From a virus (Duplodnaviria > Heunggongvirae > Uroviricota > Caudoviricetes), in the IMG/VR virus record IMGVR_UViG_2690316121_000006: 64,000 bases of DNA. One strand, 5' to 3'. Within the stretch, counting starts at the first letter, position 1. The number at the start of each line of letters is the position of its first letter. Positions 59,681-62,896 of this stretch are shown piece by piece. The position numbers were made by a program, and so were the translations under genes. The notes beneath the pieces are model-generated. The model was not told the origin of the DNA, did not search any database, and worked only from the letters and a program-made list of their open reading frames with translations.

Positions 59681-59981
59681 AATCGCAGCGCCATTAGGCG
59701 GAGATGCCATTATCGAATTTGATGATAATGAAGAAGTTTCCGGGCGTTTAAGCATTATCTCCGGTGACATTACCGAGGACATGATCGCTGAAGCCATAGC
59801 TGGGGCAAATCCCAATAGCTATATGGGATTCGTTAACACCCTTGATGCCCCCGCAAGTGATGTTCTCCGAACGCTGCATCTTTACGCTGGCTGGTTTGTT
59901 GATTGGCCAGCAGTAGATGGTGGCGATGAGGACGACGACGACGATGATTTTGGTGATCATGTAGACCAGATCGTATATTGA
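59670..59981 (+). CDS. small protein with poly-Asp tail
   Basis: 103 aa ending ...DGGDEDDDDDDFGDHVDQIVY. Confidence 0.4.
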   Translation: MQIKIAAPLGGDAIIEFDDNEEVSGRLSIISGDITEDMIAEAIAGANPNSYMGFVNTLDAPASDVLRTLHLYAGWFVDWPAVDGGDEDDDDDDFGDHVDQIVY

Positions 59982-59985
59982 AGAA

Positions 59986-60013
59986 ATCCCGCCAATCGGC
60001 GGGATTTTTTTTA
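59986..60013. terminator. bidirectional intrinsic terminator
   Basis: ATCCCGCC-AATC-GGCGGGAT followed by TTTTTTTT; A-rich on the other side. Confidence 0.7.
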
Positions 60014-60799
60014 ATCGCTTTCCACTTCTTCCGTGGTGTTTTCTTGCAGTTCTGTTAATGCAGCACGACATAGGTTCCGGGCATTGGCTATAGCCACACT
60101 TTTGACTTCATCCGTCATCGTGCAGGTAATGTACTGATCGAGTTCTTCAGCGCGGATGATGCTTTTGCCAATCAGAAACTGTATTTGCCAGAGCAGATCG
60201 GCATCCATAATCAGAATTTCTGCCGGGCCTTCAGGGCCAGCCGGGAAGGAAACATAAGACTGTTTGCCCAGGCCGATAACTCGACAACTTGCTTCAAGAA
60301 TTGCGCGCTTGAGGTCTGACTTTGTAACGGAAACAGGTTGGTTTTCACCAGTGATTATGCCGTTGATATGGAAGTGGAAGGGCATGTAGCTTGAAATTCG
60401 CTCTACTTTCCATACGCCAGCAAGCGATCCTTCATGCAGCACAATGGGGGTAACCGCGAGTTTCATCTCACCATATAACTGCTGGCAGATAGCTGGATTG
60501 CTGAATACATCCAAAGGTTCACACTCAAACAGCGGCGCAATCTGCATGAGGTCCATCATGGTCATACCAGGGGTACGAGCAGTAATGAATCTGCGCATGC
60601 CAGTATCCATTGTGCGCCAGATAGCTACACCATGCTTTTTGCTCACTTCTTCAGTAAAGCCAAGGTGGCACATGATGGTTTTTTCGATAGCCAGATCAGA
60701 GATCGAAACCTTTTCGCCAGGCACACCATCATTATTGATGGTCACTTCGACACTCTGACCATTACGCAGGCGGTATTGAATTGCTTTAGTATTTTCCAC
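60011..60799 (-). CDS. hypothetical protein
   Basis: 262-aa ORF. Confidence 0.45.
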   Translation of the reverse strand: MENTKAIQYRLRNGQSVEVTINNDGVPGEKVSISDLAIEKTIMCHLGFTEEVSKKHGVAIWRTMDTGMRRFITARTPGMTMMDLMQIAPLFECEPLDVFSNPAICQQLYGEMKLAVTPIVLHEGSLAGVWKVERISSYMPFHFHINGIITGENQPVSVTKSDLKRAILEASCRVIGLGKQSYVSFPAGPEGPAEILIMDADLLWQIQFLIGKSIIRAEELDQYITCTMTDEVKSVAIANARNLCRAALTELQENTTEEVESD

Positions 60800-60805
60800 G
60801 TTAAA

Positions 60806-61603
60806 TCACTCCACTACAAACCAGTCACATGCCAGTAAGTCGCCTACAGAAGGAACCCACGGAACAACTACACCTTGTGCATTTTTTAAGGCGAAATAAG
60901 CACCATACGGAACGAGGTCACTGGGGAAATATCCCTTAATGGCTTCCATTCGTGCCGGGTACTGCCCTTCAGGAACCAGCCAGCAGAATTGGTTTTCGCC
61001 GTTCCACCCGCGTCGAGCAACTTTCTTGCCATCCTTCAGCCACATCAGCGCGTCAGAAAAGTCGGCTGCTTCAAGGTCGATTTCTTCTTGTAGAGTAGCG
61101 ATACCGCCAGCAGAAATAGTTACGTCCCTGGCTGTAATGAATGTCACCCCGTTGTGACCTTCAATGCTGAGCAATGCCCCATTTTCGAAGAAGTCGTTAG
61201 TCCGACTAAAGCCTTCTTCAAATGTTTTTTCTGGTGAATAGGACAGAGATCCGTCCTCATAAGCGACCAGATATCCGCCAATTTCTGGTCGGTGTTTTTG
61301 CAAAAACATTTTATCAACATGGACTTTTACCCCTTCTGGCTCAACGACTTCGATGTTGCAAAGAAGGACCACATCCATTAGGGCGATAATTTCGATATCT
61401 TTGATTTTTGAGGCACGAACTGTTTTATGGCTTTTGTATTTTGGAAGTGCCGTCAAAAGCTCTTTCGTTGTCATATTATTCATAGTCTTTCCTCTGCTTA
61501 AAACCTGGTGTATTGCGCCTTCAGGTGGGCCAGGAATGTTTTCCCACCAGCGAAAGCAATATCTCGGGGTGTTCTTTTCGTGAAAAGCGCGTGCCATTGC
61601 CAA
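60806..61603 (-). CDS. protein with C-terminal DUF2829/Tad2-like domain
   Basis: C-terminal 85 aa ALMWLKDGKKVARRGWNGENQFCWLVPEG...PYGAYFALKNAQGVVVPWVPSVGDLLACDWFVVE matches the recalled Tad2-family pattern; about 160-aa N-terminal extension. Confidence 0.45.
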   Translation of the reverse strand: MAMARAFHEKNTPRYCFRWWENIPGPPEGAIHQVLSRGKTMNNMTTKELLTALPKYKSHKTVRASKIKDIEIIALMDVVLLCNIEVVEPEGVKVHVDKMFLQKHRPEIGGYLVAYEDGSLSYSPEKTFEEGFSRTNDFFENGALLSIEGHNGVTFITARDVTISAGGIATLQEEIDLEAADFSDALMWLKDGKKVARRGWNGENQFCWLVPEGQYPARMEAIKGYFPSDLVPYGAYFALKNAQGVVVPWVPSVGDLLACDWFVVE

Positions 61604-61680
61604 CTTTGGCGTTTTTTAGCGAGTTCGTGCTTTTGTTGGCGTCTGGACCACCGCTTTTCTTTCAATCGTTTTTTACTCAT

Positions 61681-62169
61681 TCAAAACGGAATATCGTCGT
61701 CAAAGTCCATTGGAGGTTCGTTATTGGCGTTGCTCTGAGGTTTACCGCCACCACTGTATTGCTGGTGGTTTTGAGGTTGGTTTGATTGCCCCCAGCCATT
61801 TGAGGACTGTGAATCGTCACGGCGAGCGCCGATCATTTGCATGGTGCCGCCCTGGCTGACGATAATTTCCGTCGTGTAACGTTCTACACCGGCGTCATCT
61901 GCCCACTTACGGGTTTTAAGTTTCCCTTCGATGTAGACCTGAGAACCTTTTCGTAAATACTCACTCGCAATTTCAGCAAGTTTTCCGAACAAAACGACTT
62001 TATGCCATTCTGTTTGCTCTTTCTGTTGGCCCGTTTGCTTGTCGCGCCATGATTCATTCGTTGCGATGCTGAGTCTTCCGACCGCGCCGCCATTTGGTAT
62101 ATACCTGATCTCCGGGTCTTGCCCTAGGGTACCAATCAGGATGACTTTGTTTACACCGCGTTGTGCCAC
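61681..62169 (-). CDS. ssb: single-stranded DNA-binding protein
   Basis: 162 aa; N-terminal OB fold ([16 protein letters not shown]...), Gly/Gln-rich linker, acidic tail DFDDDIPF. Confidence 0.9.
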
Positions 62170-62188
62170 TTATCTTACCTAATAAAAT

Positions 62189-62205
62189 AAATTAATTAGA
62201 GCAAT
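62189..62205 (-). promoter_or_regulatory. C1-type operator (16/17)
   Basis: Plus AAATTAATTAGAGCAAT, 20 bp upstream of ssb in the ssb/endolysin divergent region. Confidence 0.5.
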
Positions 62206-62226
62206 AATGTATATCTTTGAAACGTA

Positions 62227-62250
62227 GCTAACAAGTGATTTGCATTATCC
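62227..62250 (+). promoter_or_regulatory. putative late promoter element (GCTAACAAGTGATTT...CATTATC)
   Basis: AACAAGTGA core upstream of the endolysin gene. Confidence 0.3.
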
Positions 62251-62338
62251 TGTGCCTTCTAAAGGGATCGAGTCAGTCGGTATTGGCTGTGAATGGGTGT
62301 TTGTCCTGGAGCGTAAAAAATTCGCTTATGAGGTCTTT

Positions 62339-62896
62339 ATGAAGGGAAAAACAGCCGCAGGAGGCGGTGCAATTTGCGCTATCGCGGTGATGATTACCAT
62401 CGTGATGGGTAATGGCAATGTGCGAACCAACCAGGCGGGGCTTGAGCTTATCGGAAACGCTGAAGGTTGCCGACGTGATCCATACATGTGCCCGGCGGGT
62501 GTATGGACTGACGGGATTGGTAATACACACGGGGTAACGCCAGGCGTGCGAAAAACCGACCAGCAAATCGCCGCTGATTGGGAAAAGAATATCCTGATCG
62601 CTGAACGCTGTATTAATCAGCACTTCCGGGGCAAAGACATGCCCGATAATGCCTTCAGTGCAATGACAAGCGCGGCATTCAATATGGGATGCAATAGCTT
62701 ACGGACCTACTACAGCAAAGCGCGAGGCATGCGAGTAGAAACGTCCATCCACAAGTGGGCGCAGAAAGGGGAATGGGTGAATATGTGTAACCATCTCCCT
62801 GATTTCGTGAACAGTAACGGCGTCCCCCTGCCCGGGTTAAAGATTCGCCGTGAAGAAGAACGCCAGCTTTGCCTGACGGGGCTTGTCAATGAATAA
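62339..62896 (+). CDS. lyz: SAR endolysin (T4-lysozyme-fold muramidase with signal-arrest-release N-terminus)
   Basis: Start MKGKTAAGGGAICAIAVMITIVMGNG (weakly hydrophobic Gly/Ala-rich SAR helix), then the E/D(C)/T catalytic region and C-terminal IRREEERQLCL as in phage 21 R; ORF track begins 99 nt early. Confidence 0.85.
   Translation: MKGKTAAGGGAICAIAVMITIVMGNGNVRTNQAGLELIGNAEGCRRDPYMCPAGVWTDGIGNTHGVTPGVRKTDQQIAADWEKNILIAERCINQHFRGKDMPDNAFSAMTSAAFNMGCNSLRTYYSKARGMRVETSIHKWAQKGEWVNMCNHLPDFVNSNGVPLPGLKIRREEERQLCLTGLVNE

Follow-up and report, generated by a model that had tools for sequence, protein, structure and literature searches.

The minus-strand gene at positions 60806-61483 of the window, as we call the whole 64,000-nucleotide stretch of viral DNA analysed here, probably serves a P1-like phage-plasmid as an accessory gene for counter-defence, with a Tad2 sponge that would be directed against Thoeris signals. 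Judged by sequence and fold model, the C-terminal half of its product is clearly a Tad2-family sponge domain, and inhibition of Thoeris by this protein is suggested by 68% identity to the tested protein Tad2_68. The Tad2 assignment as such is already public, as 'DUF2829 domain-containing protein' and, in UniRef, as 'Thoeris anti-defense Tad2 family protein'. The two-domain form, in which Tad2 follows an OB-fold domain (OB-Tad2), is uncharacterised and was left out of the largest functional screen.

An open reading frame (ORF) is indeed present on the minus strand at 60806-61603, and its translation ends with ...ALMWLKDGKKVARRGWNG...PWVPSVGDLLACDWFVVE, as the first-pass annotation had quoted, but the start lies further downstream. 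Translation likely begins at ATG 61483, giving a predicted product of 225 amino acids (aa) plus stop (60806-61483, minus; MNNMTTKELL...DWFVVE), and a Shine-Dalgarno GAGG can be read from the sequence 7 nt upstream of this ATG (61491-61494, minus). The TTG start at 61603, which stems from a mechanical listing, is an over-extension, rejected in view of the ribosome binding site (RBS), homolog lengths and RefSeq annotation. Phage Ro157c2YLVW (NC_050153) carries the same 678-nt CDS, labelled 'DUF2829 domain-containing protein' in RefSeq; homologs measure about 190 to 233 aa overall, near-identical ones 225 aa (e.g. P0001, which is 97% identical to the window protein and stands for 453 member sequences). 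With the likely start at ATG 61483, the fused part before Tad2, correctly recognised at first, amounts to ~137 aa and not to ~160.

The predicted protein consists of an N-terminal Dec-like OB-fold domain (aa ~12-97; 61193-61450, minus), a beta-rich middle segment of low confidence (aa 98-134; 61082-61192, minus) and the Tad2 (PF11195/DUF2829) sponge domain (aa 138-225; 60809-61072, minus). In an AlphaFold2 (AF2) monomer model, for which an alignment of 44 homologs served as input, confidence is good at aa 5-97 and 140-225, except for the loop 178-190, and the middle segment shows four short strands at pLDDT 42-52. The GC content is 40% in the N-domain, 46% in the middle segment and 52% in the Tad2 domain (window mean 47%), and this mosaic inside 60806-61483 is consistent with an assembly from modules of different origin. 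Among the 44 full-length homologs, the best-conserved parts are the pocket-forming segments of Tad2, with a mean pairwise identity of 79% for alpha1-beta2 and 70% for the C-terminal segment; the corresponding values are 47% for the N-domain, 37% for the middle segment and 36% for the Tad2 insertion.

The first-pass annotation had recognised a Tad2-like pattern in the last ~85 residues, and this holds under profile search, comparison with the PDB and fold comparison alike. Pfam PF11195, the 'Thoeris anti-defense 2-like domain', matches aa 141-224 over profile positions 2-73 of 73, with 80.4 bits against a cut-off of 25 bits (E=1.5e-22). A phmmer search of all PDB chains retrieved ModTad2, also known as MoTad2 (9EIB, 8V3E; E~1e-19), HgmTad2/AcrIIA7 (2e-10) and SPO1 Tad2 (6e-9), and SptTad2 was matched as well. 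The AF2 model superposes on solved Tad2 structures: at E<=1.3e-5, Foldseek matched it to 24 Tad2 chains, and the target-normalised TM was 0.74-0.87 against ModTad2 and SPO1 Tad2. Its elements comprise a helix at 142-150, strands at 154-157 and 166-170, a low-confidence insertion and a strand at 196-200, followed near the C-terminus by a strand at 206-209, a helix at 213-217 and a strand at 221-224, i.e. the helix alpha1, antiparallel beta-sheet and insertion after beta2 of the Tad2 fold.

The residues expected in the ligand pocket are likewise conserved. In HgmTad2, gcADPR is contacted by W21/N22/G23, W87, S90 and D93 (bioRxiv 10.1101/2023.11.15.567273), which align with W160/N161/G162, W209, S212 and D215 of the window protein, a comparison based on the HgmTad2 residue list. 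The ADPR-pocket motifs GWNG and W..S..D are thereby retained; the position of HgmTad2 T92 is occupied by G214, as it is by G in the active Tad2_68. P1-like homologs have the beta2-beta3 insertion (aa 171-196; ~60893-60970, minus) in no fewer than three unrelated alleles (PEGQYPARMEAIKGYFPSDLVPYG, PDKQGASRLTPIKHAINGELEINFDSPLAPYG and LAGSVNLHDIQVPYG), and the Tad2 core on either side of it hardly varies. The second (CDN/cUMP) pocket of HgmTad2 and MoTad2 is formed by this region.

Eighteen Tad2 proteins have been assayed by Hadary et al. 2025 (Table S2; bioRxiv 10.1101/2025.08.24.671296), and by sequence the closest experimentally tested relative of the window domain is among them, namely Tad2_68, an 87-aa stand-alone Tad2 from IMG/VR with 68% identity over 82 ungapped residues. 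The two share the beta2-beta3 insertion (YPARMEA.KG.F..D.VPY.AYFALKNAQG.VVPW) and the motifs GWNG and PW.PS.GD, whereas Tad2_68 is single-domain and the window protein is longer by ~137 residues at the N-terminus. Tad2_68 inhibits Thoeris of types I and II and was negative against type IV Thoeris, both CBASS and both Pycsar systems (bioRxiv 10.1101/2025.08.24.671296). Of the 'Thoeris/CBASS-type' target originally proposed, the Thoeris part is therefore the better supported, since Tad2_68 blocks no tested CBASS. MoTad2, the best match of solved structure (45% identity; Foldseek E=1e-7), is expected to have the same tetramer-forming fold, but its insertion sequence is unlike that of the window protein. 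It has one pocket for His-ADPR and another for cUMP/cCMP; Tad2_68 lacks this anti-Pycsar activity and blocks type I Thoeris, which MoTad2 does not. SPO1 Tad2 (8SME-8SMG) and HgmTad2/AcrIIA7 (8KBI-8KBM) agree with the window domain in fold and gcADPR-pocket residues at 33-44% identity, and the insertion of HgmTad2 is longer and binds cGG/cGAMP. Tad2 specificity shifts among close relatives, as MoTad2, Tad2_70 and Tad2_71 differ, so that 68% identity leaves the ligand unfixed.

Working fused sponges are known (Acb4-Tad2 and Tad2-Sequestin; bioRxiv 10.1101/2025.07.12.664507). Like the window protein, the fusions Acb4-Tad2 (phage Pm86), Tad2-Sequestin and Acb4-Sequestin (Tal et al. 2025; Fedorova et al. 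2026) join Tad2 and another small phage domain in one polypeptide, and in the N4-like phage Ab09 a sponge hotspot adjoins a putative SSB gene, just as the window gene adjoins ssb. They differ from it in their partner, which in the window protein is an OB-fold with a putative ligand-binding role. On the other hand, Tad2_73, a 158-aa protein with an N-terminal extension, was inactive in seven of seven assays (bioRxiv 10.1101/2025.08.24.671296), and the N-terminal fusion of the window protein adjoins helix alpha1, which builds the Tad2 tetramer core; we count both against the sponge reading. Hadary et al. dropped Tad2, Tad1 and Acb2 proteins that also contained 'PF21825 or PDB 6E3C' (bioRxiv 10.1101/2025.08.24.671296), so the OB-Tad2 fusion class had been seen earlier but stayed outside the assays. 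Tad2-Sequestin fusions with 82-85% identical Tad2 parts also occur on other contigs of ~77-95 kb (L006/L007 3501-4076 and L008 3501-4370), where a HigB/HTH pair and a gene for a RecA-dependent nuclease adjoin them.

The N-terminal part, at first left as a domain of unknown function, has now been assigned: aa ~12-97 form an OB-fold that shares homology with Dec, the decoration protein of phage L (PDB 6E3C). Neither Pfam nor NCBIfam has a model that matches this domain, and the NCBIfam scan gave no model for the window protein, IsaA or Hxr. A published new sponge (Lockin, Sequestin, Acb5, TadIV-1 or the RyR-like Tad) was considered and rejected as its identity for want of a sequence or fold match; comparison with Acb4 PF13876, Sequestin PF21825, Acb2/Tad1 PF24729, Lockin and TadIV-1 yielded neither, and the domain is described in none of the papers on Lockin, Sequestin, Acb5, TadIV-1 and the RyR-like Tad. 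The window N-part and Dec have a homologous OB-fold and a similar length (in the window protein, that preceding Tad2), and in both the OB-fold gives way to a segment without order in the monomer. A BLASTP alignment reaches the Dec stalk segment (TARDVTIS vs TARTITLT), where similarity is weak and local. However, Dec is a late, capsid-binding trimer, whereas the window gene belongs to a presumably early operon and has a sponge domain attached, and Dec is devoid of the residues kept throughout the large family (H19/K20, Y75, D77, Y79, S81, S83).

The phage family to which the domain belongs is extensive and unannotated. An exhaustive HMMER search with aa 1-100 returned 2,699 representatives of clusters at 50% identity (E<=1e-3), many of them stand-alone proteins of ~85-100 aa with the motif LP.Y.CHK.V.A.KI...HKPE.GGY.V.YEDGY.SYSPAKAFEEGY. 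In the 84 multi-domain representatives, Pfam finds only Sequestin PF21825 (7), Tad2 (5), Acb4 PF13876 (4) and the Acb2/Tad1 hairpin (1), i.e. every Pfam-recognisable fusion partner of the N-domain family (17) is a known sponge family; P0105 even unites the N-domain with Acb4-like, Tad2 and Sequestin domains in a single chain. Eight matches in the 2,604-aa protein P0151, a bacterial Ig-repeat adhesin, were discarded as spurious. One stand-alone relative sits between stand-alone Tad2 and Acb4 genes, and three of the seven stand-alone relatives examined adjoin virion genes, the neighbours being T7 gp14/SLT with an ART-PolyVal giant protein, an SU10 adaptor and a portal. Two stand-alone relatives of ~90 aa (L009 4001-4264 and L016 4001-4273) overlap by 4 nt the starts of giant downstream genes, which encode an ART-PolyVal protein of 2,378 aa and a protein of 1,224 aa in podovirus-like virion modules; from this arrangement, some members of the family may be connected with the virion or with ejected proteins. 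K20, Y75, D77, S81, S83 and G91 are invariant in stand-alone relatives and vary freely in P1-like fusions, which speaks against any second binding site being conserved in the latter. Our best guess is that the N-domain is an accessory module for the sponge, with a role in assembly or a second binding function, and not a capsid decorator.

Over 60000-62300, the window shares 97-98% identity with the P1-like Salmonella phage SJ46 and Escherichia phage vB_EcoM-Ro157c2YLVW and, over part of it, with P1, and by this similarity the element is clearly P1-like. Reference P1 aligns up to 60795 and resumes at 61480, so that exactly 60796-61479 is missing from it. A match to the region occurs in 620 PLSDB plasmids; about 106 of them cover at least 80% of it and so carry the gene and the full arrangement; most others cover 70% (P1-like, without the gene) or 27% (ssb only). 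Since P1 is without the gene and 106 of the 620 plasmids have the full arrangement, the OB-Tad2 gene is an accessory cassette.

On the minus strand, the gene order is ssb, spacer, OB-Tad2 gene and isaA homolog, with hxr and ddrB converging from the plus strand. The first gene of the transcription unit is ssb (61681-62169, minus; PF00436, E=9.6e-40), the counterpart of P1 ssb. Upstream of it lies the C1 repressor operator Ossb (Op21; 62189-62205, minus), whose 17 bp (ATTGCTCTAATTAATTT) have one mismatch to the C1 consensus and are identical in sequence and position to the annotated P1 operator. The OB-Tad2 gene, which had been described as lying next to a C1-type operator and ssb, does follow ssb directly but comes second in the unit, with the operator upstream of ssb. 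The P1ssb and P2ssb promoter region (62172-62234, minus) was mapped from the P1 annotation (L001 4484-4546, offset +57688) and is placed by P1 homology only, a sigma-70 scan of the region having found no promoter. The spacer (61484-61680, minus; 197 nt) contains a 60-aa ORF; no intrinsic terminator was found on the minus strand between ssb and the OB-Tad2 gene, and an Rfam scan of 59900-62400 found nothing in this spacer. Upstream of the gene there is no P1 late-promoter box (AAGTGATT...TANNNT), the only match in the window being LPlyz at 62233 on the other strand. Because the C1 operator and the P1-annotated promoters stand upstream, no terminator intervenes and a late-promoter box is lacking, early, repressor-controlled co-transcription of the gene with ssb is plausible. 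The early expression claimed in the first-pass annotation agrees with this place in the C1-controlled ssb unit, although we infer expression itself from position.

Seven C1-operator-like sites occur in the window against 0.32 expected by chance (3463, 13781, 13792, 17314, 33386, 35057 and 62189, with an overlapping divergent pair at 13781-13808). The ORF in the spacer (61498-61680, minus; MSKKRLKEKRWSRRQQKH...) would encode a very basic peptide of 60 aa; it begins directly after the ssb stop and ends 15 nt before the ATG. It is open in 333 plasmids and never annotated, and its substitutions relative to P1 show no third-codon-position bias. At the convergence of hxr and isaA, sub-threshold Rfam matches of leader, sRNA and terminator type cluster at 59912-60109, most likely reflecting a bidirectional terminator hairpin.

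The isaA homolog (60011-60799, minus; 262 aa, phrog_2326) has a GTG start 6 nt past the OB-Tad2 stop and is probably translationally coupled to the OB-Tad2 gene; Pfam, like NCBIfam, gave no match for IsaA. In P1, the same RBS and ATG serve isaA. The annotated P1 IsaA (321 codons from a GTG just past ssb; L001 3001-3963) is over-extended through the spacer, and the true product probably starts with MTAQNTK.... Another IsaA homolog (47% identity; L004 4233-5000) directly follows a dUTPase-Tad2 fusion near c1/cre, and an X-Tad2 protein together with IsaA may represent a two-gene module. In this fusion (P0056; L004 3501-4226), located between cre and humD/hot on a P1/P7-like contig, the Tad2 part is 97% identical to that of the window, and the recombination joint of the Tad2 module falls in the linker AGGI.T.QEEIDLEA(ADF). 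In pHYEC7-mcr1 (NZ_KX518745.1; L012 2155-3267), one of the ssb-only PLSDB plasmids, an ompC porin gene replaces OB-Tad2 and isaA downstream of ssb. The place behind ssb is shown to accept variable cargo and is a candidate anti-defence site.

Alternative readings concern either the target of the Tad2 domain or the part played by its partner. The Tad2 domain could act mainly on signals other than those of Thoeris, i.e. on Pycsar cCMP/cUMP or on CBASS cyclic dinucleotides held in the insertion pocket. The second pocket of MoTad2, the cyclic dinucleotides bound by the HgmTad2 insertion, the hypervariability of the insertion among P1-like alleles and the restriction of wild-type P1 by E. coli Pycsar would all suit such a target, but the much closer Tad2_68, with the same insertion sequence as the window protein, inhibited none of the two Pycsar and two CBASS systems tested, and we regard this reading as unlikely. 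Still less can be said for an anti-CRISPR of AcrIIA7 type, which we hold to be extremely improbable even though DUF2829 was first reported as a Cas9 inhibitor and two of the PDB matches, 8KBI and 9KZR, bear the deposited name AcrIIA7 / 'Inhibitor of Type II CRISPR-Cas system'. Type II CRISPR is not known from E. coli and Salmonella hosts, which counts against it. Li et al. failed to reproduce Cas9 inhibition by HgmTad2 or homologs, and the reading has largely been refuted already.

As for the partner, the OB domain might bind a second signal (e.g. of CBASS, Pycsar or type IV Thoeris) beside the Tad2 ligand, a possibility to which we give a minor but real chance. In its favour are the 17 of 17 sponge partners, a fusion logic that also led to Sequestin, the very wide distribution of the stand-alone form of ~90 aa, a single genomic island with Tad2, an N-domain relative and Acb4, and an invariant polar and aromatic set (H19, K20, Y71, Y75, D77, Y79, S81, S83, Y92) that is absent from the capsid-binding Dec. 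Yet invariant positions are relaxed within the P1-like fusions, several stand-alone members sit in virion modules, and the restriction to sponges is partly an ascertainment effect, as Pfam covers few small phage domains. The same virion neighbours (portal, adaptor or internal-virion genes in three of seven cases) could instead be taken to indicate a virion-associated decoration protein, with OB-fold legs and a beta stalk on the capsid and a displayed or adhesive Tad2-like head, the first ~135 aa being colinear with the entire 134-aa Dec, in which the OB-fold is followed by a segment disordered in the monomer (PMC6449081). We consider this very unlikely: the gene belongs to the C1-controlled, presumably early ssb unit, at odds with the late expression of Dec-like decorators, without a P1 late-promoter box; it is dispensable, as P1 lacks it; it is hard to see what a sponge for small molecules of the cytoplasm would do outside a capsid; a trimeric Dec stalk and a tetrameric Tad2 are mismatched in symmetry; and the strongest conservation falls on the Tad2 pocket residues.

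Under the preferred reading of a Tad2 sponge against Thoeris, C1 would repress the ssb promoters in the lysogen, and infection or induction would lead to early transcription of the ssb / OB-Tad2 / isaA unit, as its position suggests. By homology, the C-terminal Tad2 domain would then assemble into the homotetramer of the family, and its inter-subunit pockets would sequester the ADP-ribose-derived signals of Thoeris TIR proteins, with 3'cADPR (type I) and His-ADPR (type II) as the most likely ligands. A ThsA-type effector would thus stay off and the phage could complete its cycle.

Laboratories use P1 widely, and defence assays often rely on it as the reporter phage. About one sixth of the related phage-plasmids from E. 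coli, Salmonella and Shigella carry the OB-Tad2 gene and reference P1 does not, and natural P1-like elements, which often carry resistance genes (e.g. pHYEC7-mcr1), may differ in Thoeris sensitivity. The analysis also provides a lead to a large, unnamed OB-fold family with a possible counter-defence contribution. It is rather unlikely that this family represents a further immune-signal-binding module or the obligatory partner of such modules; if it does, the window protein would be a two-headed sponge, and the stand-alone N-domain members would form a new anti-defence family, recognised because their relatives are fused to Tad2, Acb4, Sequestin and Acb2/Tad1 ('guilt by fusion'), the logic through which Sequestin was discovered (Tal et al., bioRxiv 10.1101/2025.07.12.664507).
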